Shown here: piece after piece, positions 3,319-46,272 of the stretch
Layout of the letters: every line of letters starts with the position of its first letter
Position numbering within the stretch: position 1 is the first letter of the stretch
The notes under the pieces: generated by a model
What the model was told of the DNA's origin: nothing
Databases searched by the model: none
The model's input: the letters and a program-made list of their open reading frames with translations, nothing else
Translations under genes and position numbers: made by a program
IMG/VR virus record: IMGVR_UViG_3300037248_000128
Location: 1-59,642 of that record
Source of the DNA: a virus
Taxonomy: Duplodnaviria > Caudoviricetes
Direction: 5' to 3' (one strand)
Length of the DNA stretch: 59,642 bases

Positions 3319-3482
3319 GGCTCCACCTCCAGCACCGGCAGCAATATCTGCCGAATCACCTCTGCCTCGGAGATCCCGAGTCGCGCCGCCCGCCGCTTCA
3401 GCGCCTCCGCAGCCGCGCGCTCGACCGTCGCCTTGATCTCGGCGTCCTTGCGGTCGTCCTTGCGGGAGCCGCGGGGCGGCAT
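3315..3482 (-). CDS. Ribbon-helix-helix (CopG-like) DNA-binding protein, 55 aa
   Basis: Manual ORF MPPRGSRKDDRKDAEIKATVERAAAEALKRRAARLGISEAEVIRQILL; fills the gap between neighbours exactly. Confidence 0.65.
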   Translation of the reverse strand: MPPRGSRKDDRKDAEIKATVERAAAEALKRRAARLGISEAEVIRQILLPVLEVEP

Positions 3483-5431: not shown

Positions 5432-6055
5432 CTAAGCTCCTAGCCTCTGGAAGCCCCAAACCTCGCCGACAGTCGGCTCCGGCTCGTCCCACTCGAACTT
5501 GTGCTCTTTCAGGAGCGAGATGGCGGCCTTGTGGATCGCCTCGCCGCGTTCCTCCGCTGAGATGGCGGCTTGGATTTGCGCGGCCTGAGCCTCGAACATC
5601 GGGCGCAGGCGATTCGGGTTTTTGCCTTTCGGCTTGAAGCGGGCCGCGATGCCCTTCACGCGCTTGAAGTCGGTCTTGAAGCCCTTCTGCTTCTCGACGT
5701 TCTGGCGGATGCGCTCGTTCAGGATGCGGACAGCATCGGCGATCAGGTCGACGGTCTCAGTCTTGCGACCACGGGCTTCGGCTTGCTGGGCGGCTTCGGT
5801 CAGAGCGCCGAACGCCGCGCTCTGGGCGCCGGACGCCAGCGTGTCGGGCTCGAGGTTGTAGACCATGCCCGTCTCGTCATAGCGCGCGCGGCGGCGGTCG
5901 CTCGAAAGCACCTCGCTCGCCAGGCACAGCAGCGCGAACGCCTCGGCGGACCCGCCAGCGTCAGGATGGAGCGTTTTTGCCTTTGCTCGGTACGCCTTGC
6001 GAATCGTCGCCTTGTCGGCGTCGCGCTTGATGCCGAGCACGTCGTAGAGGTTCAT
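5432..6055 (-). CDS. DnaJ (J-domain) protein
   Basis: LYDVLGI...IRKAYR...HPD...RRARYD. Confidence 0.9.
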   Translation of the reverse strand: MNLYDVLGIKRDADKATIRKAYRAKAKTLHPDAGGSAEAFALLCLASEVLSSDRRRARYDETGMVYNLEPDTLASGAQSAAFGALTEAAQQAEARGRKTETVDLIADAVRILNERIRQNVEKQKGFKTDFKRVKGIAARFKPKGKNPNRLRPMFEAQAAQIQAAISAEERGEAIHKAAISLLKEHKFEWDEPEPTVGEVWGFQRLGA

Positions 6056-10362: not shown

Positions 10363-10829
10363 TCCTTCGGCGCCTTCTTCTGCCAGTCGAACCAGTCCTT
10401 CGCCTCCGCGTCGACCCAGATCTCACGGTCGCCATCGTAGCCTTTGAGCTTCCGAAACACCGCCAGCGGGGCTCCCGTACGGCCGTCGGTACCCATCGTC
10501 TTCGTCACCATGCCAATAGGCCGCGTGGTACGCCCGGCTGGGCTCGAACCAGCAACCAGACCGTTATGAGCGGCCGGCTCTACCTCTTGAGCTACGGGCG
10601 CTTCGTCGACCGCATCCATCGGATCGATCTTCGGCGCGGCCTTCGCGACAGGCGGCGGCAAAATCGGCGTCTTCGATAGCGCCTTCTTCCCCGAACCCAG
10701 TCCAGCCTCAATCAACTCCACAATCGCGGCCATCCGAGAGCCAGTCCCACGCCAAACCTCAAGGCGCTCAAACACGCTCGCCGGTATCTTCACCAGAACC
10801 GAAACCCGCGCCTCCGCCATCAGGTCCAA
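10359..10829 (-). CDS. Hypothetical protein, RHH-like N-terminus; contains a nested tRNA
   Basis: VSVLVKIPASVFERLEVWRG.GSRMAAIVELIEAGL; overlaps both neighbours. Confidence 0.6.
   Translation of the reverse strand: MDLMAEARVSVLVKIPASVFERLEVWRGTGSRMAAIVELIEAGLGSGKKALSKTPILPPPVAKAAPKIDPMDAVDEAPVAQEVEPAAHNGLVAGSSPAGRTTRPIGMVTKTMGTDGRTGAPLAVFRKLKGYDGDREIWVDAEAKDWFDWQKKAPKE
10526..10601 (-). tRNA. tRNA with CAT anticodon (Ile2-like, or Met)
   Basis: GCGCCCGTAGCTCAAGAGGTAGAGCCGGCCGCTCATAACGGTCTGGTTGCTGGTTCGAGCCCAGCCGGGCGTACCA: 76-nt cloverleaf with encoded CCA. Confidence 0.88.
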
Positions 10830-21410: not shown

Positions 21411-21958
21411 GCGAGGAACGCTGGTTGCCGGTCGTCGGGTTCGAGGGTCTGTACGAGGTAAGCGACTTCGGGCGTGTGCGCAGCCTGGACCGGCTAGCGA
21501 CATACACCACGCCGAAGGGCACGGTGGTGATCCGTCGCCACAAGGGAGTCCTTCTCAAGCCGGGCATAGCGAGCAACGGCTATCCACTTGTCGTTCTCGG
21601 AAAAGGCAACAGTCGTCTTGTGCACGCCCTTGTACTGACAGCGTTTGTCGGCCCGCCCGCCCCTGGGTTCGAGGTTTGTCACGCCGACGGCACTCGCACG
21701 AATAACTGCCTAACGAACCTCCGCTGGGGCACGCGAACGGACAACATGCGAGATGCAGTTCGGCACGGGACGGCGAACGGCTACTCGTCACCCGGTTCCA
21801 CGAACGGAAGCTCGGTACTGACCGAGGGCGACATTCCCCTGATCCGACAATTGGTGCGCAGCGGGCTTCGCTACACCGAAATCGCGCCTAGGTTTGGTGT
21901 CGGGCCCGACACGATCGGGCTTATCGCCCGCGGTCGTACATGGAGCCATGTGCCGTGA
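21407..21958 (+). CDS. NUMOD4-HNH homing endonuclease
   Basis: ERWLPVVGFEGLYEVSDFGRVRS; VCHADGTRTNNCLTNLRWGT..DN. Confidence 0.92.
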   Translation: MSEERWLPVVGFEGLYEVSDFGRVRSLDRLATYTTPKGTVVIRRHKGVLLKPGIASNGYPLVVLGKGNSRLVHALVLTAFVGPPAPGFEVCHADGTRTNNCLTNLRWGTRTDNMRDAVRHGTANGYSSPGSTNGSSVLTEGDIPLIRQLVRSGLRYTEIAPRFGVGPDTIGLIARGRTWSHVP

Positions 21959-22947
21959 GCCTCAACATCATCAAGTGGAACGGTAACCCGATAAGTGAGC
22001 CGGGGATTTACTCGCACGTCCCGATCCTCACGTATCATGGCCCGGGCCTATGCGTCGGCCCCTCAATTAGCTCTTCCGGGTTGCGTACGATCTTCAGCGA
22101 CTCGCCGATGCAGTACTGGATCCGGTCGCCCTATAACCCGCAGCGCCTCACCGAAGAGGAAAGCCGCGCGTTGATTCTCGGACAAGCTGCACACCACCTC
22201 TGTTTGGGCGAGGTCAACTTTAAGAAGGTCTTCGTCGTACGCCCCGACGAGTACCCCGATCAACGAACTGGCGAACTCAAGAAGTGGACCCGGGCCGCCA
22301 ATTACTGCAAGGCGTGGGAAGCCGAGAAAGCGGCCGCAGGGCTTGCGATTCTCACGCCCGCCGAGTTGGAAACGATTAAGGGGATCGCCGGCATCTTGCC
22401 GTGGCAGAAGGGTCTTGAGGACTCCGGGCTGCTGAACAACGCCGTGGTTCGCGCGGGTGCTCTGCAGGGCCTCGTTGAGCACACGATAATCGCCTACGAC
22501 AAAGAGACCGGAGTGTATCTGCGCGCCAGGCCGGACGTGATTCCGACCGCCAGTACCGAGGCGGTCGACCTGAAAACGACGGCGGCGATTGATGACCGCA
22601 GTCTCCAACGCACCCTCGATGACTATAGGTATGATTTCCAAGCCAGTTTGATTAGCCGGTGCCTTGAACAAGCGGCCGATTTCCGCCTCACCAATTTCGC
22701 GCTCGTCTTCGCCTGCAAGAGTCCGCCATACGAAGTCGCCGTCCGCGAACTGAAGCCGTTCGACATGGACGAAGCCGCCAAGGACGTACAGGCCGCCATC
22801 CGCACGTTTGCCCTCTGCATGGAGCGCGGGAAGTGGCCAGGCGTCGGCGGCGGCGAGACAGACGCTAAGTACCTCGAACGCTCCGAATGGAGCCGACAGC
22901 GCGCCGCTGAACGGCGCACGCAGCTCGCGCGGGACATCTTCGGATGA
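21955..22947 (+). CDS. RecE/exonuclease VIII-like PD-(D/E)XK nuclease (DUF3799)
   Basis: ISSSGLR, GQAAH, RARPD, VDLKTT, YDFQA. Confidence 0.85.
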   Translation: MSLNIIKWNGNPISEPGIYSHVPILTYHGPGLCVGPSISSSGLRTIFSDSPMQYWIRSPYNPQRLTEEESRALILGQAAHHLCLGEVNFKKVFVVRPDEYPDQRTGELKKWTRAANYCKAWEAEKAAAGLAILTPAELETIKGIAGILPWQKGLEDSGLLNNAVVRAGALQGLVEHTIIAYDKETGVYLRARPDVIPTASTEAVDLKTTAAIDDRSLQRTLDDYRYDFQASLISRCLEQAADFRLTNFALVFACKSPPYEVAVRELKPFDMDEAAKDVQAAIRTFALCMERGKWPGVGGGETDAKYLERSEWSRQRAAERRTQLARDIFG

Positions 22948-23189
22948 GGATCGGTCGCTACGACCCGTCGAAGCCGCACAAGCCTCGGTCCGATAAGCAG
23001 AACGAGCAGTTCCGCCTCGCGCGTGTTCGCGGCCTTTGGTTTCACGCCTACATGCTGACAGGCGAGCGCCGCGAGGCGATGCAGCAAATCGTCGACGACG
23101 AACTGACCGCGCACGGCGGCGAAAGCCAGACTGATCGCGCTCGACGCCAGCGCGCCGAACTAGAAGCTCGATTTGGAAAGGACCACTGA
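22944..23189 (+). CDS. Hypothetical protein
   Basis: Coupled between recE-like and recT-like genes. Confidence 0.6.
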   Translation: MRIGRYDPSKPHKPRSDKQNEQFRLARVRGLWFHAYMLTGERREAMQQIVDDELTAHGGESQTDRARRQRAELEARFGKDH

Positions 23190-24727
23190 TGACCGACGCC
23201 CAACTACCCGCCGTAGCCGAGAAGCCCAAGCCGCAGATCGCTGGCGGCGGCGCCGTGGTCGCGCTCGTGCCACAGACGCTCGACGAGGCGTATCGGCTGG
23301 CGGACGCGATGTCGCGCTCCGGGCTCATGCCGAGCAGCTTCAAATCACCCGAGGCGGTGATGGTCGCGATCATGGCCGGCGCCGAACTCGGCTTCGCTCC
23401 TTTTCAATCTTGCCAGAGTCTGGCTGTGATTTCCGGGCGGCCCGTACTTTTCGGCGATGCGATCCCGGCCCTGATTTGGTCGAACGGCTTCAAGCTCAAG
23501 GAGTGGTTCGAGAACGAGGCGGCTGACTACCCCGACGAGATGGCCGCGGTCTGCGAAATCACGCGCCCTGACGGCCAAGTGATTGCGGGGCGGTTCTCGG
23601 TCGCGGACGCGAAGGAAGCGCGCCTGTGGTCCAAAGATGGGCCGTGGCAGACCGCCAAGAAGCGGATGCTAAAAATGCGAGCCCGGAGCTTTGGCGCCCG
23701 AGACGGTGCCGCCGACTTGCTCCGCGGTCTGTTTGTCGCAGAGGAAGCCCAGGACATCCCGCCCGCCGCCGACAACGGGGCCGGAACTGGCATGGTCGGC
23801 CGCCTGCAAGCCCGAGAGGTCAACGTCGATCCCGACGTACTGAACGTCCGCGAGATCGCCAACGCGGTCGACGGCCAGCCCAAGCGCCGCACCCGCCGCA
23901 CGAAGGCGCAGATCGACTTGGACGGACGAGTGGCCGCGTTCCTCAATCTACTGCCGAGCGACGAGCCCATGCCAAGTGCAGAGTACGTCGCCGAGAAGAT
24001 CGACGCGCCGCTGGCCGATGTGATCGAGTCGCTACAGCGCCAAGACATCGAAGTGGTCGGTGCGCCCGACGCTGGCTCGCACATGGAGAACGAGATCGAA
24101 GCAGAATTTGAAGCAGGAGGCGAAGATGCAACGGACGTCGGGAAAGCCGGCGAGCAGTCGACCCCGGTGGAGACGCCGGGGGAGCCTGCCCCCGCTGCGG
24201 AACCTCCCGCAGAGCCGTCGCCCCAAACGCCGTACGCTGTCGGTGACGAAGTGACCTACGCCAACGGCGAGTCTGGCACGATCGTAGGCACCATGGAGTC
24301 AGAACCCGAGCCTGCGGAGGAAGCTGAAGTCGACGAGGGGGAGCCCTCCCCTCCTACCTCCGCCGCCTCGCCGGGCCCGGTTGACCTCTACCGCATGGCC
24401 TTGGCGAATGCTGGGGACTTCGCGAGCGTGCGCGGCATCGTCACCGAGTTCCGCAAGACGACAGCGTTCGGCGACATGGACGCGAGCGAGCGGATCGAAG
24501 TGAACAGGGCTGCCGTCGAACGTCTCAACGATCCGAGCGTCATCGGCGTCCCCGGCGTCGACCAGAACGTCTGGCTGTTCTCGCTCTGGATGGCGACCGC
24601 GGACAACGAGGCGGTCGCGCAGCGGTTCGAGATGCTCAAGCAATCTGGCGACTGGCAGGCGATCCCGCCCGAGCGGCAGGCCATCATCGCCAGCGCCGTC
24701 CATGAGCGGACAGGAGCGATGCTATGA
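23189..24727 (+). CDS. RecT-like single-strand annealing protein with long acidic C-terminus
   Basis: AIMAGAELG..P.QS..ISGRP, GPWQ...RML.MRAR.F..RD...DLLRGL..EE. Confidence 0.8.
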   Translation: MTDAQLPAVAEKPKPQIAGGGAVVALVPQTLDEAYRLADAMSRSGLMPSSFKSPEAVMVAIMAGAELGFAPFQSCQSLAVISGRPVLFGDAIPALIWSNGFKLKEWFENEAADYPDEMAAVCEITRPDGQVIAGRFSVADAKEARLWSKDGPWQTAKKRMLKMRARSFGARDGAADLLRGLFVAEEAQDIPPAADNGAGTGMVGRLQAREVNVDPDVLNVREIANAVDGQPKRRTRRTKAQIDLDGRVAAFLNLLPSDEPMPSAEYVAEKIDAPLADVIESLQRQDIEVVGAPDAGSHMENEIEAEFEAGGEDATDVGKAGEQSTPVETPGEPAPAAEPPAEPSPQTPYAVGDEVTYANGESGTIVGTMESEPEPAEEAEVDEGEPSPPTSAASPGPVDLYRMALANAGDFASVRGIVTEFRKTTAFGDMDASERIEVNRAAVERLNDPSVIGVPGVDQNVWLFSLWMATADNEAVAQRFEMLKQSGDWQAIPPERQAIIASAVHERTGAML

Positions 24728-33423: not shown

Positions 33424-33622
33424 ACTTCGAGCCCTCTTTCCCGTCTGGGACGATGCGGGAGCGCATCTCAGCCCACTTCATCGCCGACTCCAGCGCAGCG
33501 ATCCGATCGCGTGCTGAAGGCGGGTCTGCGCCTTCGACGGTAACCTCGCCATCGACTGTCTTCAAGACAGCCACCACGGCCGCGTCGATCGCGGAAATCA
33601 GGGGGTCGTTCTTGGCCATCAC
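33278..33622 (-). CDS. Hypothetical protein
   Basis: GTGA-coupled to the 920-aa gene. Confidence 0.6.
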   Translation of the reverse strand: MMAKNDPLISAIDAAVVAVLKTVDGEVTVEGADPPSARDRIAALESAMKWAEMRSRIVPDGKEGSKFGGLKSQLREAGGRRGRGTAATEDRPNGHDSGPDPAGDADPLDAFGAD

Positions 33623-36381
33623 TTGTTCTCGAGGTCGGCCATTTCGGACAACGCGGACGAGGCGTCGCCAGCGGGCGCGTCATCGGGCGCCCGGGCTTCC
33701 CGCTCAGACGGTCCTCGCATCGGCGCGGTCTTGCCAGCAGTGCCTTCCACGCCGATCTGCGCGAGCGCGATCCGGCGAAGCAATTGCCGGTCGTCCATGT
33801 TCAGATGCGCCGAAGGGTCGATGCCGAGCGTCTTGCCGATGGTCTCCGCGTAGGCTTTCGGGTCGTTCGAACCATCTCCTGCCGGCGCCCAGCGGTCGGT
33901 GATGCCGTAGAGCGTATCGATCCCGTGCTTCGTGTAGTAGGCGTGCAGATTCTCGACCGACGCCTGCAAGCCGTGCTCAGGGGTGTCGAAGACCGCAAAC
34001 CGCCCATTCACGCCCGTCTGGCCGACGTAAGACTTTCCATCCTCGCGCGGCTGAAGGTTCGTCGGATTGTTGTTCTCGAACTCGCCCGTGAGCGGCGCGG
34101 TGACGAACGCGGCGTACTGGGTCGGAACGGGGGTCGGGGCTGGCGCGGCCTGCGCTGCTGGCTGCGACGGCGTGTCGCCGCCCTTCTGGCTGTCGAACTG
34201 ATCGAACGGGTTCGCTTCCTTCGGGCCCTTGTCGGCGTCGTCAGCGGCAGGCCCGCTCTGCGCTCCCTTCCCAGCCGCGACCGAGGCGGGCCAGATTGCC
34301 TTCAGTTCAGGCGGCAATCCCTTGGGTACGTTCCCCTTTTCGGCCGCGTCGGCGATCTCGTGCAAAGTCGCTTCCACGTCCTTTTGCTGCACGGCCCACT
34401 CGGCGATCTGCCGCGCCTCGTCCTCGCCCATGCCGAAGTGGTGACGGGCCAGGAACCGCATTCCCTGAACAACGGCTTGGTGATAGCGCCCGCTGATCAC
34501 GTCGAGGAACGTGCGCGTCGCCGTGTCCTTCACGTCCTGATCAATCATCCGGGTCTGCGAGCCGGTGCGAGAGCCGACGAAGTTAGCCTTGTCGACGCTC
34601 TGCCCGATCAAGTCGACGGCGCGCAGATAGCGGTCCGCGACTTCCTTGCCGAGCAGCTCGGTCAGGTTGGCTTTGGCGTTGTAGCCGGTGGTCAGCACGT
34701 CCTCGAGCCCTTGAGCGCCGCGGCTGCTGGTCCCGAACCGGCTAGAGAGCCGCTCGACGACCGCGTGCTGAAACTCCGCCCGCTGCTCGGGCGTCAAGTC
34801 CTTCAGCATCGCCTTGAACTGCTCCGGCCGCATCGTCGACACGTCCTTGTCGAACTCCGCTTGGCGGATGCGCGTGGAGTAGTCGCGATAGCTGGCGCGG
34901 GCCTCTTGCAGATGCGGCGCCTTGTCCAAGTGCTCGTCGATGGCGTCCATGCGCGAGCGGACCGCCGAAGCATTGTCCATATCGCCTCTGTCGGCGAACT
35001 GAGACGCACGGTCTCGGAGTCGGATGCGAACGCGATCTAGAGCTCCGCCAGATATGGTCGGGGGCTGTGGCTCAGGCGGTACGGGTGCCTGTTTCTCAAT
35101 GGCCGCGAGCACCTGTTGTCGAGCAGCGGGTCCGAGATTTGCTGGAATGGCGTCGACAAGGCTCTGATGCTTTGCCGAATCCGCTTTGTATTTGGCACGC
35201 GCAATGGCGTAGCGGTCGAGCGCGTCGAGCTCATGATACTGCTGCGCGGCTTGGGGGTCGGAGATCATCCGCTCTCGCGCGGTGGCCCGAGCAGAACGAA
35301 TTGCTCTGCCCGACTCGGGGCTATCGAGCGCCTCGAACAGCGATGGCTCTGTCTCAATGGGATGAGAGTAGGGCGTTTGATACTTAGTCTCCGCGAGAGA
35401 ATCTCGCTCCTTCTTGAGCGCCGCGACCCGTTGCTCGGCCGAACCTTGTTTTGTCGAGAGGGCTTCGGTCCGCTGCGTCGCCCGTGCACCGACATCCGCT
35501 CGCGCGCGCCGACGGTGTTCCTCGAGGATCGTGTCGGCATCGCCCGCCCGCGTCGCCGCCGTGCGCACGACGCGCTGTGCGGGCGTTTCCATCACGTCAA
35601 GCAGTCGAGGGTCACCCGCATCGACATCGCGGTGTTCCTGAGCCGCCTGACGGGCTTGGCGAGAGTTTAGCTTGCCTTGGCCGATGAGCCTGCGCGCGGC
35701 GCCAGTACGGGCGGTGTCGGCGGGCGTCGGCGGCTCGCGTACAGGAAGGCGCGCGGTTAGCGGCTCGCTGGCCTGCGGCGGGCCCATGACGGGCTCACCC
35801 TTGGGCCCCGCCAAGTAGAGGTCCGACCAGATGTCCTTTTCCAGATCCTCGACGGACGGGACCTGACCGAAATCTTTGTCTTGCTCCGGGGTTACGTCCT
35901 GCCCGCCCGGCAGAAGCGCGCCAAGGCCACGCTCAGCGACGATCCGGCGCCGACGCTCCTTGTCGGACAGCCGCGCCGCCCTCTGATTCGTCGGCATGGC
36001 TGACAGAAGCGCATGCTCGCCTTCAGCCAGCGGCCTCACGACAGCCGTATGCAGCGGAGCCCCGACGATGGCGGTCATCGGCACGTTCGCCGCGTCCGCC
36101 GCCAGGTGGTAGGCGTCGACATAGATGCCCGCGGCCTCTTTGGCCAACGCGAGCGCGTCCATTGGATCGCCGGTTTTCTGGAACCTCGTCAGAGCGTCGC
36201 TGATGCCTTGCGCGCGAGCGGCTGGCTGTTGGGTTACGTCTTTGCCCAACCGCTGCGCCGCGCTAGCGACATCAGCCCCGTAGGTTGAGCCGAGATAGCC
36301 TGTCACGGGATTTCCCGTGTCCAGACCGCTCGCCGGACCGCTAGGCGCGTCGAATTGGTCGAACGGATTTGCGGCGGGCAT
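33619..36381 (-). CDS. Internal virion/DNA-ejection protein with C-terminal lysozyme-like domain
   Basis: 920 aa helical; NPFDQFD twice; NNNPTNL..FAVFDTPEHGLQA..TLYGITDRWAP. Confidence 0.75.
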   Translation of the reverse strand: MPAANPFDQFDAPSGPASGLDTGNPVTGYLGSTYGADVASAAQRLGKDVTQQPAARAQGISDALTRFQKTGDPMDALALAKEAAGIYVDAYHLAADAANVPMTAIVGAPLHTAVVRPLAEGEHALLSAMPTNQRAARLSDKERRRRIVAERGLGALLPGGQDVTPEQDKDFGQVPSVEDLEKDIWSDLYLAGPKGEPVMGPPQASEPLTARLPVREPPTPADTARTGAARRLIGQGKLNSRQARQAAQEHRDVDAGDPRLLDVMETPAQRVVRTAATRAGDADTILEEHRRRARADVGARATQRTEALSTKQGSAEQRVAALKKERDSLAETKYQTPYSHPIETEPSLFEALDSPESGRAIRSARATARERMISDPQAAQQYHELDALDRYAIARAKYKADSAKHQSLVDAIPANLGPAARQQVLAAIEKQAPVPPEPQPPTISGGALDRVRIRLRDRASQFADRGDMDNASAVRSRMDAIDEHLDKAPHLQEARASYRDYSTRIRQAEFDKDVSTMRPEQFKAMLKDLTPEQRAEFQHAVVERLSSRFGTSSRGAQGLEDVLTTGYNAKANLTELLGKEVADRYLRAVDLIGQSVDKANFVGSRTGSQTRMIDQDVKDTATRTFLDVISGRYHQAVVQGMRFLARHHFGMGEDEARQIAEWAVQQKDVEATLHEIADAAEKGNVPKGLPPELKAIWPASVAAGKGAQSGPAADDADKGPKEANPFDQFDSQKGGDTPSQPAAQAAPAPTPVPTQYAAFVTAPLTGEFENNNPTNLQPREDGKSYVGQTGVNGRFAVFDTPEHGLQASVENLHAYYTKHGIDTLYGITDRWAPAGDGSNDPKAYAETIGKTLGIDPSAHLNMDDRQLLRRIALAQIGVEGTAGKTAPMRGPSEREARAPDDAPAGDASSALSEMADLENK

Positions 36382-37779: not shown

Positions 37780-39226
37780 TGGGGGTCACCGCGCGGCCCA
37801 TCCCAGCAAGCGCCGTGGCGAAGTTGCCGAACGCTTGGTTCAACTGGTTGTCTTGGTTGATCTGCTCCTGCATCAATTGCACGTAGAGCTGGTCGCCCGC
37901 GTTCGTCTCTTGGACCCCTTGGGCGAACAGTTGCGTGGCGATCTGCGCTTGGGCGGCGACCTTACGCTCCTGCACCGCCTGCTGGTCCTGCGCTTCGGCG
38001 CTTGAGGCGGTCATTCCGCGCGAGGCGTATTCCGAGGCGATGGAAGCGTCGGCGCCCGCCGCCTGCGCGTTCAGCGCCTCTTGCTCCCCAGGGGGTAGCG
38101 TGCCGTTCTCGAGATAGCCGCGGAGCTGCGCGCCCTGTTGGCTGAGCGCACCCGCTTCTGAGCCCAAGATGCCCGAGTACGGCGTCTTTGGCTTGTTCAG
38201 CGCGTCCAGCGCCAAGCCGGCGAGCGGTAGGAACGGGGCGGCCTCTTTCAGGAACCCGCCAACGCCGCCTGTGGATGCAGCCCCAGCCGCCGGGGCGTTG
38301 AGCGTGATGCCCGGATCAAAAGCGCTTACTGGACCTGTCACGGTCGGCGCCGCCGTCGCACTCGGCACGCTAGCCGTGGTGTCGAACGGGACCGGGCCAG
38401 CAACGCTGGACAAATCAGCCGGACCGGCCGCGCCGACATCGCCGCCCGCGCCCACCGTCCCGCTGGTCAGCGACAGCGTGCTCGGCACGCCGACGTTCGT
38501 AGCGCCAGCCGCGCCCGTCCCGACATCGCCCGGAAGCTGCGCGCTTGCAGCGCTGGTCGGAGCAGTGATGTCGCTCGGCGAACTGAGCGCGACAGTCCCC
38601 GTGCCGCCGGTCAGCGTCGGGAAACTCGGCTGCGTCAGCGTCGCGTCGACCGTCGGCGCCGCGATAGCTGACGGCACGCCGCCAACATCGGCGCCCGTCG
38701 CAACGCTTGCCGGCGGCGGAGCAGATACGCTCGGCGACAGTCCGCCCGGAGCGGCAGAGGGACCGCCAGCGGGAGCAGCGCCTCCACCCCCGCTTGGTGT
38801 GGTGAAGCCTGTCACGCCGCCAGCGAGCGCGCCGAACGCAGCGCCTTCCAGCGGGTTCTGGTGCGTAAGCTCGGCACCGAGCGCACCGCCGGCCCCACCG
38901 GCCAGCACGTCGCCCGCCGTGGTCCCCAGGCCCGTCGCAGCGCCGATAGCCGGCCCGAAGCCGCCGATGGCCCCGCCAGTGACAGCGCCGCCCAGCGCGC
39001 CCTCCCAGAGCGGCTCGTGCGTCAGCGCAGCCTCGCCGGTCCCTAGCAGCGCGCCTGTGGCCGCGCCCTCAAGGCCGGTGCCGATGGCTGAAGCGACGCC
39101 AGCCGGCAGCGTCGCGCCGAACAGGGCCGCCGCGTCTGTGGCCGCAGTCGCGCCGAATGTAGCTACAGCCGTACCTGCGGCTTCAAAGCCAGCGATCAAA
39201 CTACCGATGATTGCACTAATTCCGAT
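37772..39226 (-). CDS. Internal virion/ejection (pilot-like) protein; start may be ATC at 39226 or TTG at 39199
   Basis: Gly/Ala-rich N-terminus, Gln-rich C-terminus; AGGAGG 5 nt before ATC. Confidence 0.7.
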   Translation of the reverse strand: MGISAIIGSLIAGFEAAGTAVATFGATAATDAAALFGATLPAGVASAIGTGLEGAATGALLGTGEAALTHEPLWEGALGGAVTGGAIGGFGPAIGAATGLGTTAGDVLAGGAGGALGAELTHQNPLEGAAFGALAGGVTGFTTPSGGGGAAPAGGPSAAPGGLSPSVSAPPPASVATGADVGGVPSAIAAPTVDATLTQPSFPTLTGGTGTVALSSPSDITAPTSAASAQLPGDVGTGAAGATNVGVPSTLSLTSGTVGAGGDVGAAGPADLSSVAGPVPFDTTASVPSATAAPTVTGPVSAFDPGITLNAPAAGAASTGGVGGFLKEAAPFLPLAGLALDALNKPKTPYSGILGSEAGALSQQGAQLRGYLENGTLPPGEQEALNAQAAGADASIASEYASRGMTASSAEAQDQQAVQERKVAAQAQIATQLFAQGVQETNAGDQLYVQLMQEQINQDNQLNQAFGNFATALAGMGRAVTPNA

Positions 39227-39288
39227 GGTCGCCTCCTGGTAGTTTCCGGGGCCAGCCGACTACATCGGAACGTCTCACAGCGCGGTCA

Positions 39289-39316
39289 GGCGGGCAAGAT
39301 AGCCATCCTGCCTGCC
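39289..39316 (-). terminator. Hairpin closing the minus-strand pentamer unit
   Basis: GGCGGGCAAGAT-AGCC-ATCCTGCCTGCC imperfect 12-bp inverted repeat; no U-tract. Confidence 0.5.
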
Positions 39317-39391
39317 TCGCCGTGCCGGGCTATTCTTCTGCGCGCCATGCCATCACGGGCTTCTCCATGCCATTCGAGGCCGCGCCTTGCC
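39312..39391 (-). ncRNA. Single GGY-NN pentamer unit (putative guide RNA)
   Basis: 16 in-register pentamers ggcaa ggcgc ggcct cgaat ggcat ggaga agccc gtgat ggcat ggcgc gcaga agaat agccc ggcac ggcga ggcag. Confidence 0.8.
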
Positions 39392-39395
39392 AAAC

Positions 39396-39572
39396 TCAGG
39401 GCGAAAGTAACCTCTCGCGAAGTATGTGCCGCGCAGCCTGTGGCCGCGTAGCGATTCCTCGATAGGCGTCTAGCGCCGCCAACTCTTCAGGACGCAGGCG
39501 AACTTCAACCACAGTCGCATGGACGGGCGGTCTGCCCGTCTTTTTGCCTGTGTTATCTGTTGACGCCTGCAT
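39396..39572 (-). CDS. Small RHH-like regulator of the cassette
   Basis: KKTGRPP...VVEVRLRPEELAALDAYR...TRPQAARHIL. Confidence 0.7.
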   Translation of the reverse strand: MQASTDNTGKKTGRPPVHATVVEVRLRPEELAALDAYRGIATRPQAARHILRERLLSP

Positions 39573-39602
39573 TAAGCCAATGATACAGGTGGAAACTGTC
39601 AA
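39560..39602. promoter_or_regulatory. Candidate promoters for the two arms of the cassette
   Basis: TTGACG on plus strand (39560) and TTGACA on minus strand (39602) in an AT-rich stretch. Confidence 0.4.
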
Positions 39603-39648
39603 AAGGCAAGCCTGATTGTCGGGCACAGGGCCATGACAGGAGAACGAA

Positions 39649-40380
39649 ATGACGAAAACTGACCGAGAGAGCCTTGCCGGCGCATTGTCGTCCAAGGCAA
39701 CCTTCAAGGGCTTCAGCGTTTGGCTGGTCGGCGATACGCCGGTCATCACTCACGCGTGGAGCGAAAAAGCGCGGCGCGAGATGCTGCAGAAGCAGGTCAA
39801 GGCGACCAAGGGCGGGAAAGAGGCCCGCGATCCCGAGGCCGATTTTGTGTCGAGTCTCTACGAGATGGGCGACGGTGCCTACGGCTTCCCGGCGATGGGC
39901 GTGAAGAACTGCATTCTCAGCTCGGCGCACAAGGACAAGGGCATCCCAAGGTCGGCGGTGATGGCCGGTCTGTGGATCGACGCCGACATGGTGCGCACTC
40001 GACCGGCGCTCGCCGGCGCGGTCTGCGACATGCCGCTGATCCGCATCTACGGCACCGATCCGGAGATGCGGGAGGACATGGTGAAAATCGGCTCTGGCCT
40101 GAACAAGATCGCCAATCTGAGCTACCGCGCGCAGTTCACCGTGTGGGCGATGAAGGTGACCGGCCGGTTCAACACCACGATCCTGACGCCTGAGGCGCTG
40201 GCGTTCCTCATCCAAGAAGCTGGACTCGCGTCTGGCCTCGGCGAGTGGCGCAACGAGCGCCGCGGCATGTTCGGCGCCTTCCACCTCGCCGACGTGGACG
40301 AAGAGGCCGCATGGGAAGCCTACGCCGACGGCAAGGGCGACCTTCCGGTTCCGGCGTCCTATCGGCAAGCGGCGGAGTAA
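39649..40380 (+). CDS. Stand-alone Cas7/RAMP-like protein (VIPR-type effector candidate)
   Basis: N-terminal beta strand + G.TP.I.H; YGFPAMGVKNCI (P...K helix); C-terminal Gly-rich loop AGLASGLGEWRNERRGMFGAF; AGGAG RBS. Confidence 0.78.
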   Translation: MTKTDRESLAGALSSKATFKGFSVWLVGDTPVITHAWSEKARREMLQKQVKATKGGKEARDPEADFVSSLYEMGDGAYGFPAMGVKNCILSSAHKDKGIPRSAVMAGLWIDADMVRTRPALAGAVCDMPLIRIYGTDPEMREDMVKIGSGLNKIANLSYRAQFTVWAMKVTGRFNTTILTPEALAFLIQEAGLASGLGEWRNERRGMFGAFHLADVDEEAAWEAYADGKGDLPVPASYRQAAE

Positions 40381-40386
40381 CCAACC

Positions 40387-40890
40387 ATGAACTACGTGTT
40401 CAAGGACGCACCCGTCACGATCTTGAACGCCAAGCGCGCCGATCCCAACCGGATCGGCGCTGCCTTGGCGAAGATCGCCGAAGACGGGCACGGGCGCCTG
40501 ACGCCGAACGCCGTCGTGGAGGCCGCCCGGAATCCGCGTTCGCCGTTGCACCGGCACTTCGAATGGGACGACGCAAAGGCGGCCGAAGCATACCGGCTCG
40601 ACCAAGCTCGCGAAATCATCCGAGTTGTCCGTATCGAGGGCAACGACAATGAAGAACCCGTCCGAGCTTTCCTGTCCGTCAAGGACGCCGCTGGCGTCAG
40701 CTATCGAACGGCCGAAGACGTGCAGGGAAGCCTCGAACTTCAGCTTGCCGTCCTAAGGCAGGCTGAAGCCGATCTCGAGGCGTGGACGAAGCGCTACCGC
40801 GAACTCAGCGAAATCTGCGACGACGTGCTCAAGGCGCGCGACAAGATCAGGACGCGGCGCGAAGCGGCGGAAAGTCGTCTTCACGCCTAG
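40387..40890 (+). CDS. Partner protein of the RAMP-like gene
   Basis: LTPNAVVEAARNPRSPLHRHFEWDDAKAAEAYRLDQAREII; sits between the RAMP gene and the array. Confidence 0.75.
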   Translation: MNYVFKDAPVTILNAKRADPNRIGAALAKIAEDGHGRLTPNAVVEAARNPRSPLHRHFEWDDAKAAEAYRLDQAREIIRVVRIEGNDNEEPVRAFLSVKDAAGVSYRTAEDVQGSLELQLAVLRQAEADLEAWTKRYRELSEICDDVLKARDKIRTRREAAESRLHA

Positions 40891-40897
40891 ACGATTT

Positions 40898-41600
40898 GGC
40901 TGGGACCGGCGGCGCTTTGTCTGAGTGTCGGGCCGGGGCAGGGAAAAGCAGGCGCGGCCACGAAATGTGACGCAAGTCGGCGCGTGTCGCGAACGGGCAT
41001 GGCCGGATGGGCTGGGCTTGGTGGAGCCAGTCAGCGGAGGGAATGGCAGGTCTTTGCTCGGCAGGCGGGGCATCGAAGGTGATGGCGCATTGCGGAGCGG
41101 GAAGGTCATGTTTTGAGCGTCTCGTGTCGGCTCGTGATGGCAAGGCAGGCAGTGCTCGGGGGAGCGGGGCAGAGATCGTTGATGCAGCGCTCGGCCCAGT
41201 TAGGTGAGGCAGGCTCGGAACGGCCAGTCCCAGCAAGTGACGGAACGGCTCGGGCAGGTCGGCTTGGCAGGCGTGGACGGGCTTTGTCCGGCAGAGGCGA
41301 GCTAGTCGCGTAACGCCATGTCTCAGCTTGGCTCGGCAGGAATGGATATGCGAGGCCCGTTGTCGCCCGTCCCGGTAGGGACCGTGATGGCATCTCGCGG
41401 AACGGCGAGGCTGGATAGGAACGGCTGTGCCCGTAGCGGATTGGCTCGGTTGGGCAGGCTGGGAACGGTCGTGAGGGGCGAGCGTCGGCAATGCCCGGAC
41501 GGGAGGTGTTAGGCAAGGCTGGCGGGGTTGGGAAAGGCAAGTAGTCGATAGGACAGTCTCGTCTTCGCATCGCCCGGGCAGTCGTGGCCCAGTAGGGCTG
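40898..41600 (+). ncRNA. Array of about 11 GGY-NN pentamer units (putative guide RNAs)
   Basis: 5-nt periodicity; junction pentamers (mostly GGCAG/GGCTG) + 4-mer at 40947, 41001, 41060, 41144, 41208, 41266, 41335, 41409, 41453, 41517, 41596; no credible ORF. Confidence 0.85.
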
Positions 41601-41603
41601 GCC

Positions 41604-42059
41604 CTATGCGAACCGGCGCGCGTAAAGCGAACCGGTTATCGAGTAGCCCCGCGCTTGGAGCAAGTATTCGAGCGCGGGGTGACCGATACGACTCTCGATC
41701 ACGATGACGCACGGCTCGTCTTTCGACAAGTCCGCCTCCATGAAGTCGAACAGACCGCCCGCCGCGCCGACGTTTCGGTGCTCAGGCGCCACCCAGATCG
41801 TATCGTCGCGGGCGAACTTATGGTTATAGTGGGCGTGCCTCGGCACAACCGTCATGATGCAGTAGCCGATCAATCGACCGTTGAGGCGTGCGGTGTAGGC
41901 GAACAGCAGTCCAGCGCGGTTCGCTCTCTCGTAAAATCCGAAGTCAGGGTCAAGCGGCGTCTCGACAAGCCGCAACCCAAGTTCCGCCCAGTGCACGGGC
42001 AGCAGCGGACGCAACTCGTCGATCACGTCGCTATAGTTTTCGCGGCGGTATTCGATCAT
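41604..42059 (-). CDS. GNAT-family acetyltransferase
   Basis: GRLIGY...IWVAPEHRNVGAAGGLF...RGY. Confidence 0.8.
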   Translation of the reverse strand: MIEYRRENYSDVIDELRPLLPVHWAELGLRLVETPLDPDFGFYERANRAGLLFAYTARLNGRLIGYCIMTVVPRHAHYNHKFARDDTIWVAPEHRNVGAAGGLFDFMEADLSKDEPCVIVIESRIGHPALEYLLQARGYSITGSLYARRFA

Positions 42060-42394
42060 GAGGCGACTCCCGCAGCGGCTTCCTCCGCTTCGTGGATTTG
42101 CCAGTGAGTGTAGACGAATCCGCGAAGGCTGTTCGGGTTGGTGTAGTCCACATCCTGAAGATCGAACAGCGTCGTGCCGAGGAAGCTGGATTCGTCGATG
42201 TGGCTCTGATTGTTGCGCTGCAAGAACCCGGGGAAGTCGCGCAGGTCTATAGGGTCGAGCACATACTCGATGAGTTGCGGCCCGCCTTTGGCGACGATGC
42301 CCTGCCGGATCACGTTGTGGCTGACGCGGTGATGGAACGACCAGCGCAGCCAGTCTTCGGGCGTCTGCGGGACCTCAAGCAGGACCGGGAGCAA
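42056..42394 (-). CDS. Hypothetical virion-module protein
   Basis: Coupled ORF, His-rich. Confidence 0.65.
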   Translation of the reverse strand: MLPVLLEVPQTPEDWLRWSFHHRVSHNVIRQGIVAKGGPQLIEYVLDPIDLRDFPGFLQRNNQSHIDESSFLGTTLFDLQDVDYTNPNSLRGFVYTHWQIHEAEEAAAGVAS

Positions 42395-42718: not shown

Positions 42719-44119
42719 CTAGATTCCGACGGCGTTACTGTCCGTGTATCCAATGACCAGATCGCCGACCGTGAAGTCCGGGCTCGTGCTGGTGAACGTA
42801 AGCTGAGCGGCGTTGAAATAAAAGCCCTCGCTGCCTGAGCCCCAGACCGACCAGTAGGGCTGCGGCGCCGGGAGGCTGGGGTTCTGATCCACGAGCGCGC
42901 CCGTCGACAGCGTGAGGTTCTGCATCTCCGCGTAGGTCGGGTCTGCGGGCTGCAGCGCGACGCCTGAGCCGGTGAACGTCAGATCCACCGTCACGCCAGA
43001 TTGGGCCGCGGTGTTGTCCTGCATGGCCGTCCAGAGGCCGCGGAGCTGCTTGGTCACCAGCATCGTGTCGATGCCGTACGTCTTGGTGGTGAGCGTCTTG
43101 GTGAGGTTGCCCGAGGCTTGCTGGAACAGCGGGAACAGATTGGTCCCGTCGGTGCCCCAGGCGGTGAATTTGCTCTCGACCTTCTGCTGGGCGATGCGCG
43201 TCAGGTTCACCGACTGGCTTGTGACTACCCAGTCCTTTTCGTTCCACGTCAGCATGACGTTGCGCGGGTTGTTGCCGAACTGATCTTGGACGCTCAGCAG
43301 CAGCATGTAGTGCTTGATGTTGAAGAGATGCGCGAGCGCCGAGGACGGCGTGATTCCACCGTTCGGCGGGAAGACCACGTTGATCGGGCCCGGATAGGTC
43401 GGCGTCGGCGTGGCGACCGCCGTCCACGTCAGATTTCCCGTTCCCGTCCAAGTTGCCGCAGGATTCGGCGGCGGTGGCGGGGCCATCGAACCGCCGCTGA
43501 TCGGCGGAAAGTCGGTCTGCGGAATATCATTCAGGCCGTAGAAGGCGAGAAACCGTAGACGGAACAGTTCAGGCGGGCCGCCGAAGGTCGAGTTGACGAC
43601 ACCGGGCTCTTGAATAAAGACGGTCTGCACGCCGTCCCCGAGAAAAACGCCGCTGCCGTTGAATGAGATGTACTGCTGCGGCAGCGATGGGTCCCAACTA
43701 CAGACCGCCGTTCCTTGGTAATCGCCGAAGGCGGCCGGATCACCGCCAGCAGCGTAGAAGTTTACCGTCGCGGGAAAGGAGGGAGGGACCGGACCGATGT
43801 ACCCCAGCCCCCGGGTTCCGACGCTATCCAGCAGAAAGACATTGCTTGACGGCTCCTCCGCCGGAACGCCGGGCGTTGCGTAAGCATCGGTCCACGTCGC
43901 CACCATGACGCCGCCGGGGATGAGCGTTCTTCCTCGCAGCAAGCCAACGGCTAGGGCGGTGAAAAATGGGCCCCCGGGACTACCCGGAAAGTTGGGCAGC
44001 AACCCCCCGCCATCCACCGTCGGAGTGTCAAAAATATCGGTTATCGCACAGTAGCCAGTGTCCGCGTTGTAGTAGGTCCCGGCGATGAAGTCGCAGTAGA
44101 TGATGGGAACGACGGTCAT
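42719..44119 (-). CDS. Tail protein
   Basis: ATGA-coupled to the upstream tail gene; beta-rich. Confidence 0.65.
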   Translation of the reverse strand: MTVVPIIYCDFIAGTYYNADTGYCAITDIFDTPTVDGGGLLPNFPGSPGGPFFTALAVGLLRGRTLIPGGVMVATWTDAYATPGVPAEEPSSNVFLLDSVGTRGLGYIGPVPPSFPATVNFYAAGGDPAAFGDYQGTAVCSWDPSLPQQYISFNGSGVFLGDGVQTVFIQEPGVVNSTFGGPPELFRLRFLAFYGLNDIPQTDFPPISGGSMAPPPPPNPAATWTGTGNLTWTAVATPTPTYPGPINVVFPPNGGITPSSALAHLFNIKHYMLLLSVQDQFGNNPRNVMLTWNEKDWVVTSQSVNLTRIAQQKVESKFTAWGTDGTNLFPLFQQASGNLTKTLTTKTYGIDTMLVTKQLRGLWTAMQDNTAAQSGVTVDLTFTGSGVALQPADPTYAEMQNLTLSTGALVDQNPSLPAPQPYWSVWGSGSEGFYFNAAQLTFTSTSPDFTVGDLVIGYTDSNAVGI

Positions 44120-46272
44120 CCGAAAATCTGGTCCAGCTTGGCGCTGATCTTCGTGGCGCCGCCGGCGTATAGACCGAAAATCCCCGTCTCGTTGGCGAAG
44201 ATGATGGAGCGGCCGAAGTCCTGCATCGAATCGCGCCACGAGTTGCCGGTCTGCGGGTCGATGTTCTGGTAGTTGAACGTCGTCGTCGGGGGATTTCCCG
44301 AGGTGGTGACGCTCGAGACGACCGAGGCCGAGCCATCGCCGAAGAAGTAGAGGTAGCCGTTCGACTGGCGAATCTGCGTGTAGTGCGTTTGCAAGAAGTT
44401 GTCGGAGTTGGTGAACAGCACCCCGCCATCCGAGGTCGCGTAGTCGGTGAAGCCGCCGGGAGCCGAGACCTGCCAATTGCCTCCGGCCGGCAGCGTCGCG
44501 TAGTTGGCCTGCTTCGGGTTGGCGATCCAGAGGCGAGAGGCGAAGGTCTCCATTGCCGAGCCTGAGACTCCGAACGGCATCAGTGTCACGGTCGCGTAGG
44601 CCGCATTGTTGGCGCCTGCGGAAATCTCGATAGCCGGCGCCGAGGTATAGCCCTCGCCGTAGCTCTCCATGATCGCGCCAGAGAGCGTGGTCGGCGTGTA
44701 GACCACCGTGGCCCCCGCTCCCGTTCCTGGGTCGCCGGAGACGGGCGCGATGAGCACTTGGCTGTTCTGCGTGAAGCCGGAGCCGGGGTTGGTCACGTTG
44801 ATCTGCACGACGCCGCCGCCCTGCAGGACAGGAACGGCCACGCACCCGCCGGAGCCGAAGACCACGATGGGCGGGACGACGTTGTTGTAGCCGGTGCCCC
44901 CGTTGGTGATCGTGACGCCTGTGACAGCGCCACCGGAGACCGTTGCGACGCCTGTGGCCCCCTTACCCCCGCCTCCGACGAAAGCCACCGTCGGAGCTGT
45001 CGTGTAGCCTGACCCGCCCTCGAAGATGATCACCGCGATGAGAGCGCTCGTGCTGTCGGAAGCCGTGGGGCTGGCGATGGCGCCCTGGCCGTTTCCGCCG
45101 CCGATGATGATGATCTGCGGAGGCTCGATATAGTTCTGGCCGGGCGCGGTCACGTTGATGTGGGCGACCGTCGTCGGGGTCAGGGTCGAGATCGCCGTCG
45201 CTCCGGCCCCCCCACCGCTCACGAAGGTCAGAAGCGGAGCCTCCGTGAAGTTCGAGCCCGGATTCACCACGGTCACATTCGCAACCGTTGTGGCGTTCAG
45301 GATCGCCTGCGCGAGCGCGCCTGAGCCGTCACCTGTAATCGTGACCGCCGGAGCCCCAGTGTACCCCGACCCCTCCACGGTCACGTTGATGGCGGTGATC
45401 ATGCCGCTGTTGATGACGGTGGCCGCCGCAGCTCCGGTTCCGCCTCCACCGGAGAAGGCCACGGTCGCGGTCGAATAGCCGGTCCCCTGCGCGATCACCT
45501 CGACCGCGGCCACTGCCGTCGCTGTCAGATTGGCCGTCAGGATCGCGCTCGTATCCGAGCCCCCGCCCGTGAAGGCGAGCTGCACGATGTCGCCGATCTT
45601 GTAGCCTTGGCCTGGATTGGTGATCTCGACGTTCACGATGCCGCCGTTGAGCACCGTTGGGCTGAGCACGAGTCCCGTGCCCCCGCCTCCGAACGGAACC
45701 ACCGTGGGCACGCCCTGGTAGTCAGATCCGACCGACTGAAGAACCACCCCGTTCGGAGCCGCGGAGCCTGACAGATAGAGCAGCGCCCCGTCCCACGCCC
45801 AGAAGTCGTTGGTCGTGTTGTTGTTTGAAATCAATAGGTACTGGACGCCCCATTGCGTGCAGTCGGGCACGTTTCCTGTCGCGGTTTGATAGAACGTCCC
45901 CGGCGGGCCGATGGTGACCGGGCTACCGATTGGAGCCAGCGTCGTCGGGTCGATCTGAACTTGGACCGCCGACCCGTCCGACAGGAACACCGCGACGTAG
46001 TAGTTCGAGGCGATCGTGTAGAAGTAGAAATAGACGATCGTCAGCCCGCCGGTGGCGGTATAGGCGGCCGTGCCGAGGTCCCACGCCGTCCGAAGATACC
46101 CCTTGCCGAGGTGCAGATAGTTCTCGCAGTACGCCAACTCGGTGTTGTCGATCGCGATGTTGGCGTCTTGGAGATTGATGCCCGCCCACGGGAACGGCGA
46201 GTAGGTCTTGAACCCCGGAGGAAGCCCAAGCTGGCGCTGCGCGGCGGTTGAGAGGTCGGCGCCCCGGGCCAT
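44116..46272 (-). CDS. Tail (nozzle/tubular B-like) protein with Gly/Thr-rich repeats
   Basis: 718 aa; multiple V..I.V...G.GYT..P.V...GGGG.GA repeats. Confidence 0.7.
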   Translation of the reverse strand: MARGADLSTAAQRQLGLPPGFKTYSPFPWAGINLQDANIAIDNTELAYCENYLHLGKGYLRTAWDLGTAAYTATGGLTIVYFYFYTIASNYYVAVFLSDGSAVQVQIDPTTLAPIGSPVTIGPPGTFYQTATGNVPDCTQWGVQYLLISNNNTTNDFWAWDGALLYLSGSAAPNGVVLQSVGSDYQGVPTVVPFGGGGTGLVLSPTVLNGGIVNVEITNPGQGYKIGDIVQLAFTGGGSDTSAILTANLTATAVAAVEVIAQGTGYSTATVAFSGGGGTGAAAATVINSGMITAINVTVEGSGYTGAPAVTITGDGSGALAQAILNATTVANVTVVNPGSNFTEAPLLTFVSGGGAGATAISTLTPTTVAHINVTAPGQNYIEPPQIIIIGGGNGQGAIASPTASDSTSALIAVIIFEGGSGYTTAPTVAFVGGGGKGATGVATVSGGAVTGVTITNGGTGYNNVVPPIVVFGSGGCVAVPVLQGGGVVQINVTNPGSGFTQNSQVLIAPVSGDPGTGAGATVVYTPTTLSGAIMESYGEGYTSAPAIEISAGANNAAYATVTLMPFGVSGSAMETFASRLWIANPKQANYATLPAGGNWQVSAPGGFTDYATSDGGVLFTNSDNFLQTHYTQIRQSNGYLYFFGDGSASVVSSVTTSGNPPTTTFNYQNIDPQTGNSWRDSMQDFGRSIIFANETGIFGLYAGGATKISAKLDQIFG

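Follow-up and report, generated by a model that had tools for sequence, protein, structure and literature searches.

VIPR (Viral Interference Programmable Repeat) systems have been presented in four 2026 preprints (among them 10.64898/2026.10.21.760802). The founding system is that of SUSP1 (10.64898/2026.04.26.720920). As seen by cryo-electron microscopy (cryo-EM), one Vipr subunit sits on each pentamer of the guide RNA, gripping its GGY triplet and presenting its two variable bases, NN (10.64898/2026.04.26.720927, section 5); GGY is contacted by H17, R138, D177, W178 and R179, and the target backbone by K33 (10.64898/2026.04.26.720927). The NN bases pair with DNA and one target base per unit is skipped, which in natural targets falls on the wobble position of codons, and a match of 80% is the line used for calling a target (10.64898/2026.04.26.720920). 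Internal degeneracy of the arrays is described as frequent, with the motifs NNNGG, YNNNG and NNNNG, and the legend of fig. S18 refers to “staggered arrays, 1 nt overlapping” (10.64898/2026.04.26.720920). Guides directed against vipr and vrRNA match self less well than non-self (10.64898/2026.10.15.759431, section 8). Here we set beside these systems a 2.3-kb cassette of the IMG/VR virus record IMGVR_UViG_3300037248_000128 (Duplodnaviria; Caudoviricetes), a linear and complete record (CheckV completeness 100%) whose full 59,642 nucleotides (nt) we call the window. The cassette combines a vipr gene, an accessory gene and a long array of degenerate GGY-NN pentamers, and we consider it very probable that it is a VIPR system, with the predicted targets discussed below, of a phage that lacks an integrase. 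A sequence-only reading of this DNA had named VIPR as the matching architecture, and this proves apt, since the family is published (10.64898/2026.04.26.720920) and the protein is homologous to its founding member.

Membership of the VIPR family is well supported by sequence homology of the first gene product, a protein of 243 amino acids (aa). The protein has a RAMP/Cas7-like fold with an RRM core, a glycine-rich loop and a thumb, as its sequence hallmarks had led the sequence-only reading to expect, and its best structural matches are type III Csm3/Cmr subunits. A profile of 27 sequences aligns with SUSP1 gp039 over 172 columns (hhalign probability 98.5%, E 2.5e-15). In the SUSP1 genome (NC_028808), a pair of short genes on the minus strand has tailed GGT-NN arrays on either side; we take the product of one of them, gp039 (195 aa), to be the published Vipr because its numbering fits nine of the ten residues named from cryo-EM (H17, K33, E71, M72, R138, C173, D177, W178 and R179), the tenth, T175, being V in gp039. 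The equivalents of the SUSP1 contact residues in the phage protein are H35, R160, E199, W200, R201 and K51. H35, R160 and R201 are each present in 27/27 homologs, position 199 is E in 25 and D in two, position 200 is W in 25 and H in two, and position 51 is K in 18 and G in nine. E199 thus stands for D177 as a D-to-E change, and conservation does not extend to the pocket residues E71 and M72, which are M83 and G84 here. The proposal that one subunit binds each pentamer, grips GGY and presents NN agrees with the cryo-EM preprint (10.64898/2026.04.26.720927, section 5), and the residues that make these contacts are conserved in this phage.

The second line of evidence is the array. Self-identity in 40891-41600 reaches 0.403 at lag 5, compared with values of 0.22-0.31 for lags 1-4 and 6-8, and the period shows again at lags of 10, 15, 20 and 25, confirming the some 700 nt of periodic non-coding DNA previously noticed. 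Over the whole record, lag-5 identity exceeds the mean by more than 3.5 standard deviations only at 40917-41024, 41182-41341 and 41432-41596. We also applied a phase model of six states (the five G-G-Y-N-N phases and a background) with fixed, untrained parameters and one-base slips allowed. Among arrays of at least 40 nt on both strands of the record, it finds one on the plus strand (40927-41601) and one on the minus strand (39395-39311), and on both strands of 20 first-order Markov surrogates it finds none. Both fit the description of VIPR arrays, which have at least four tandem YNNGG/GGYNN units and 9-16 units per vrRNA. Tandem Repeats Finder calls no array in the cassette, because the phase slips by one base roughly every 60 nt. 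The plus-strand array is made of runs of 8-16 pentamers with a 4-nt unit interposed every ~45-85 nt, and these junction steps read GGCA six times, GGCT twice, GGCC once and GGTC once. Over its 126 units, G occupies position 1 at a frequency of 0.73 and position 2 at 0.78, position 3 is C 0.53, A 0.22, T 0.13 and G 0.12 (Y 0.66), and the NN positions are near uniform; the pentamers are GGY-like, as first described, and degenerate.

Peptide-pattern scans retrieved 37 viral and two genome loci with vipr homologs of 29-82% identity (handles with the prefix L denote loci of our collection), the sole cellular relative of vipr being a Tianweitania contig. The 5-nt-periodic arrays that the sequence-only reading proposed to look for beside homologs are indeed there, the phase model calling an array next to vipr, and on its strand, in 37/39 loci; the other two are L002, where lag-5 identity still flags 5621-5757, and the partial locus L018. 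A homolog of the partner gene stands beside vipr in 37/39 loci as well. The internal phase slips of the family are 4 nt long in 324/353 cases and read GGCA in 221, the family-wide junction consensus is GGY-AA-GGCA-GGC, and the commonest runs between slips are 9-12 units. Likeness at the DNA level between the phage and any relative is restricted to 39668-40697: vipr and the accessory gene are 65-78% identical to those of relatives, and the array DNA cannot be aligned with that of any relative, nor are the flanks alike. Conserved genes with divergent arrays are what one would expect of programmable guides.

The guides were decoded by the published rule, in which each NN is followed by one skipped target base, the single skip length that the decoding covered. 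With the skip-one code, three of ~11 guides (vr1, vr2 and vr9) give non-random matches, each starting at the first unit after a junction and spanning nine units, and in vr1 and vr2 the base passed over is the wobble base of each codon. The signal is seen solely with nine-unit windows that start at junctions; whole guides of 8-16 units, compared with the phage and 40 loci, give nothing above shuffled guides. The clearest match is that of vr1, which fits the codons A-H-K-D-K-G-V/I-A-R of relatives' vipr at 18/18 positions in L013 and 17/18 in twelve loci. It has 18 matches at 15/18 or better, when 100 shuffled guides average 0.28 and never exceed 2. In 2.9 million viral contigs the exact pattern occurs three times, twice at the same site of vipr homologs, one of which lies outside the related loci already collected. 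From these alignments we hold, with good confidence, that the predicted target of vr1 is the vipr gene of rival VIPR phages.

The exact vr2 pattern has at least 120 metagenome matches. Read on the other strand, the pattern encodes L-I/M-L-L-C/W-P-N/K-H/Q-H/Q. Among the matches listed, 93 encode LILLCPNHH, 90 of these 93 preceded by an N that the pattern does not force, and 82 align over at least 60 aa (BLASTP) to open reading frames (ORFs) that Pfam calls HNH_2. PADLOC assigns the matched domain to SAVED-HNH, CBASS endonuclease effector, PDC-M68A and SduA, and one matched ORF of 362 aa aligns over its full length with a SAVED-HNH effector (E 1e-58); nucleases with this motif are of defence type and include a Cap5-like one. 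On this pattern, the codons of the HNH_2 catalytic motif are the likelier target of vr2, with some room for doubt. We also considered whether the matched HNH genes serve other VIPR types as accessory genes; when 28 Vipr sequences were compared with the 120 loci by tblastn, no Vipr came up, though a distant type may have escaped this search.

The exact nine-unit vr9 pattern has 43 matches in the viral contigs and its reverse has 0. ARAGORN calls a transfer-messenger RNA (tmRNA) at 24 of the 43, with the match at its 3' end (14 permuted and ten standard), and two further matches lie in tRNA-Lys. One 26-mer is shared by 38 of the 43, and 27 are preceded by the complement of CCA. With up to two mismatches, 41 genomes of the family of the cellular relative hold 17 matching places compared with four for the control; the best have one mismatch (two such matches), and the one retrieved is a tmRNA 3' end. 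The pattern matches the antisense of the tmRNA, that is, vr9 has the same sense as the tmRNA, and hence pairing between the two RNAs is not feasible. Prophages and islands frequently integrate at the 3' end of the tmRNA gene, a classic site for this. The phage's own attachment site is not what vr9 is aimed at, because neither a tyrosine integrase nor a serine recombinase was found in the record and it has no copy of the target sequence, the best self-match being 14/18. We lean, if only slightly, towards the 3' end of the tmRNA gene as the predicted target of vr9. Table 1 collects the coordinates of the guides and of the other features.

Table 1. Features of the VIPR cassette and its immediate surroundings (positions in the window).
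Feature	Position	Strand	Description
vipr	39649..40380	+	243-aa RAMP/Cas7-like, RNA-binding subunit
vap-like accessory gene	40387..40890	+	167 aa; starts 7 nt after vipr
Staggered vrRNA array	40927..41601	+	675 nt, non-coding, ~10 pentamer runs
vr1 guide	40951..40995	+	9 units; predicted target: vipr of rivals
vr2 guide	41005..41049	+	9 units; predicted target: HNH_2 motif N-L-I-L-L-C-P-N-H-H
vr9 guide	41457..41501	+	9 units; predicted target: tmRNA gene 3' end (acceptor and T arm)
Own vipr site homologous to the vr1 target	39925..39950	+	residues A93-R101; 15/18
Single divergent vrRNA-like array	39311..39395	-	85 nt, 16 pentamers; phase model
Small ORF	39399-39572 (39396 with stop)	-	58 aa
Sigma-70-like promoter match	39580..39609	-	in front of the small ORF
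GNAT acetyltransferase gene	41604-42059	-	PF00583, E 8e-6; convergent with the array

Several results weigh against a functional system with these targets, and we give them here together with the alternatives that they bear on. At the level of the cassette, a consensus scan found neither a terminator nor a rightward promoter for it. Of the two relatives that bear on the host, the Tianweitania contig and Brucella phage BiPBO1, whose exonuclease is the nearest phage relative (34%) of the RecE-like exonuclease of this phage, neither settles it. At the level of the guides, it may be that the system is real but that only vr1 has a real target, vr2 and vr9 having met abundant conserved sequences by chance in huge collections. 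The vr2 and vr9 matches were found post hoc among ~10 guides; the vr2 scan had no reversed-pattern control, and ~27 of the 120 listed matches are background. No perfect vr2 or vr9 match occurs in the genomes sampled around the cellular relative: vr9 has none in the 41 genomes of its family, and the vr2 pattern with up to one mismatch was not found in 61 genomes of its class. Beyond nine units vr9 gains nothing, as units 10-12 never match, and its 11-unit pattern has five matches in 401 genomes, where the reversed control has about five as well. Against an origin by chance stand the 43 matches of vr9 to 0 of its reverse, and the 0, 0, 1 and 2 matches of four other nine-unit guides in the same collection, from which we take the background there to be low. 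The vr2 matches, moreover, lie in frame with the skip at the wobble position, 82 of the 120 listed fall in one protein family, and all three guides match from the first unit after the junction. We therefore regard chance as an unlikely, though not a negligible, source of the vr2 and vr9 matches.

A second alternative concerns vr1, which might serve mainly in feedback repression of the phage's own vipr-vap operon and not in an attack on rivals. At 15/18 (83%), its match to the homologous site of its own vipr is the best self-match of any guide in the record, and it lies over the 80% line of the discovery preprint (10.64898/2026.04.26.720920). Yet vr1 fits its relatives better, and the three self-mismatches stand close together, each at the first base of its unit (units 7, 8 and 9), in a manner that looks like avoidance. 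They include an Arg codon read as AGG. Of the other loci that have Arg here, 17 encode it by CGN and L001 alone by AGG; in eleven ORFs with 275 Arg codons, AGR accounts for 8%. A self-match below the non-self match is also the pattern given for vipr- and vrRNA-targeting guides in section 8 of the relevant preprint (10.64898/2026.10.15.759431). Feedback as the main role of vr1 thus seems improbable to us. The phage (39925-39950) and its closest relative L001 (4241-4282) have I-P-R in common at this site, with the AGG codon for Arg. It is possible that AGG in these two is an escape change, Arg being among the few residues at which a synonymous change alters a base other than the wobble base.

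The array might, thirdly, be a decaying relic, such that the proteins work and most of the periodic DNA yields no functional guide. The scaffold is degenerate, its conformity to GGY (0.73/0.78) lying below that of most relatives (0.9-1.0 in L008, L009, L015 and L024); many relatives are much cleaner, with lag-5 identity of up to 0.74. In vr1 only 2/9 units begin with GGY, and binding of Vipr to its units is for this reason an assumption. Most guides, furthermore, lack a target. For vr3 there is one match and for vr4 there are two exact viral matches from one homologous locus, none of them a convincing target; vr5 has 0 matches in 101 genomes, vr6 and vr7 have 0 each, and vr8, vr10 and the minus-strand guide match nothing in the phage or the related loci. 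On the other side, the closest relatives (L001, L003, L006 and L038) are as degenerate as the phage, so that degeneracy characterises the whole clade; neither ORF is disrupted; and vr1, the most degenerate stretch, has the clearest target. Internal degeneracy is also frequent in the discovery preprint (10.64898/2026.04.26.720920). Decay of the array is accordingly a very improbable account. The two exact vr4 matches (L095 2153-2178 and L096 4774-4799) belong to a single conserved ORF whose function is unknown and are in frame, with the skip at the wobble position; counted as one independent locus, they are compatible with chance. A reading of vr4 as a guide against the tRNA D arm, suggested by a 14/18 match to the phage's own tRNA-Met, was rejected, as 41 genomes gave 29 matches against 59 for the control; the one tRNA-Met (CAT) gene of the phage lies at 10526-10601 (-).

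That the cassette is instead an orphan Cas7 left over from CRISPR, or a CRISPR-like effector of a new kind that targets RNA, as its best structural matches to RNA-targeting type III Csm3/Cmr subunits might suggest, we find barely credible given the profile homology to SUSP1 Vipr including the GGY-contact residues, an array of pentamers in place of repeat-spacer units, the sense of vr9, which could not pair with tmRNA, and the lack, already remarked by the sequence-only reading, of any CRISPR-like repeat-spacer array found in the record and of Cas1 or Cas2 in its six frames (Cas3, Cas5, Cas6 and Cas10 were not searched as families).

Taking the cassette as a VIPR system, we propose the following mechanism. 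The rightward operon would make Vipr, a single-RRM RAMP protein, and a winged-helix-like accessory protein, its transcript continuing into the array. Cutting of the array transcript at or near the 4-nt GGCA junctions would release ~10 vrRNAs of 45-85 nt, along each of which Vipr would polymerise with one protomer per pentamer. H35 and E199 would hold G1, R160 and W200 would hold G2 and R201 would hold position 3, leaving the two variable bases of each unit to face outward. Reading double-stranded DNA in the pattern NN-x-NN-x, with every third base passed over, the resulting filament would block transcription or access at the target. In the three decoded guides, specificity appears to reside in the first nine units after the junction, and the final one to three may act as a handle. 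Filament assembly, the skip rule in this clade and silencing are inferred by analogy with the SUSP1 and Pseudomonas fulva preprints.

Since the VIPR family is already in print, the cassette is not a discovery in kind; the sequence-only reading had allowed for just this, and had guessed that the instance and its targets might be new. The main texts of 10.64898/2026.04.26.720920 and 10.64898/2026.10.15.759431 list no defence gene and no tmRNA/ssrA among the targets of vrRNAs, and the terms tmRNA, ssrA and tRNA are absent from both; their supplementary target tables may hold cases. A literature search combining vrRNA with tmRNA and VIPR with ssrA and phage returned no relevant paper. With the type II VIPR of SUSP1 and P. 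fulva, the cassette shares a homologous Vipr with the same G1, G2 and Y3 contact residues, a phage-borne operon of two genes, one of them accessory, that is bordered on either side by RNA genes of GGY-NN pentamers, and decoded targets that appear to follow the one-base skip with wobble alignment. It differs in the length of Vipr (243 aa here, 195 aa in SUSP1), in a 20-residue insertion at ~118-137 that the distant homologs of the alignment also lack, and in its accessory protein, which is unrelated to SUSP1 vap1 at the sequence and profile level. Whereas the SUSP1 array has tails, the guides here abut at the 4-nt GGCA step with no conserved 3' tail or pseudoknot, and their scaffolds are far more degenerate. 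The cassette thus shows neither of the type II traits, vap1 and a conserved structured tail on each vrRNA, leaving types I and III-VII as candidates.

The staggered vrRNA arrays of the fig. S18 legend (10.64898/2026.04.26.720920), with neighbours that overlap by one base, fit what is seen here and in 37 related loci, a 4-nt unit and with it a one-base slip at each boundary. A guide against rival vipr with a lower self-match resembles the vipr-targeting vrRNAs of the SUSP1 family (10.64898/2026.10.15.759431). The latter are mostly solo, on Enterobacteriaceae phages that have lost vipr, whereas vr1 opens the array of a phage that itself carries VIPR and has a GC-rich host, and is aimed at the mid-gene codons A93-R101. 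Class 1 CRISPR Cas7, Csm3 and Cmr4 subunits are alike in their RRM core, glycine-rich loop and thumb, and in placing one subunit on each step of constant length along the guide RNA. In VIPR this step measures 5 nt, three bases of which are sequestered, and in Class 1 CRISPR it measures 6 nt with one base flipped; the present system, unlike Class 1 CRISPR, has no spacers acquired by Cas1-Cas2 and reads its target discontinuously.

If the three predicted targets are taken together, the array may be a multi-purpose silencing kit of an integrase-less phage, directed at rival VIPRs, Cap5-like HNH nucleases and the 3' end of the tmRNA gene, and not only an anti-satellite weapon; we offer this tentatively, as a possibility that we do not yet favor. 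To the satellites, prophages and other VIPRs of the predicted target range, a nuclease gene of defence type and the gene for tmRNA would be added, and phages would have in VIPR a means of counter-defence and of interfering with integration sites as well. In that case vr2 would be an RNA-guided anti-defence agent against the HNH effector domain of CBASS and related systems, and one hard to escape because the guide ignores wobble positions. The vr9 guide could lock ssrA-integrated prophages, islands and satellites in place by covering the attachment core, or could deprive the host of tmRNA. We hypothesize that occupying the HNH gene or the tmRNA end would have one of three effects: silencing of the effector, blocking of attachment cores or reduction of tmRNA. 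Furthermore, the related loci, at least 37 in number, form a clade whose junction and guide length are defined, which provides a rule for cutting staggered arrays into guides.

The cassette, mostly rightward, is flanked by minus-strand genes on either side. The view that it interrupts the virion operon stands in so far as minus-strand genes with virion-type PHROG matches lie on both sides (33622-36381 and 44119-46272); that the adjoining genes belong to such an operon is not borne out, as the immediate neighbours of the cassette have no match. The two rightward genes are present as first described. Searches of the cassette proteins against Pfam, NCBIfam and PADLOC gave no match, and the PHROGs matched are of unknown function. 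Rfam returned sub-threshold chance matches only for 39000-42000, no family, hammerhead included, reaching threshold. Directly downstream of the array lie a 112-aa ORF without matches and the GNAT gene (41604-42394, -). Elsewhere in the record, the RecE-like exonuclease (phrog_412, E 6e-58) adjoins a RecT-like annealing protein (phrog_561) at 21940-24727 (+).

The leftward regulator and repeat unit announced by the sequence-only reading correspond to the small ORF and to the minus-strand array, which begins directly after the stop codon of that ORF. The array stands as described, and the regulator is less clear: the ORF has a weak match to a repressor family (phrog_4738, E 0.0029), none in Pfam, NCBIfam or PADLOC, and no conserved homolog beside vipr in relatives. 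It is possibly a ribbon-helix-helix-type repressor. The promoter scan gave one leftward match at 9/12 positions, where shuffles average 0.6, and this is a consensus match only. A hairpin at 39521-39541 (+) is at or below the shuffle expectation. Inverted repeats of 18-23 nt with 83-89% identity (39338-39360 / 41130-41152 and 39341-39358 / 41382-41399) relate the array on the minus strand to two stretches of the one on the plus strand, with GTGATGGCA common to all; such repeats could reflect a shared target sequence or guide-guide pairing.

The 167-aa accessory protein is modeled with a winged-helix-like N-terminal domain and one long C-terminal helix. It shows no similarity to SUSP1 vap1 (BLASTP E 0.2; hhalign probability 0.1%), and a VIA-wide search with its model was swamped by the long helix and set aside.

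Among the relatives the position of the array varies, lying between vipr and the partner gene in some distant ones (L021, 4613-4779 and 5328-5598; L022; L037, 4634-5351) and upstream of vipr in L023, L033 and L039. Comparison of 928 nine-unit windows from the relatives' arrays with the phage and all relatives at 17/18 or better gave array-on-array matches only, hence no relative at hand targets this phage. Vipr homologs of 30-36% identity also occur in actinobacteriophages, in 32 records (27 of Mycobacterium and five of Gordonia phages) where they are annotated as “hypothetical protein”. Mycobacterium phage Quico (L226, NC_028751) has a clean GGC-NN array at 2031-2350 in an unannotated gap upstream of gene 57. 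In Gordonia phage UmaThurman (L225, NC_031249), a periodic tract at 3064-3451 coincides with the annotated “gp40 hypothetical protein”, which for this reason is probably not a gene.

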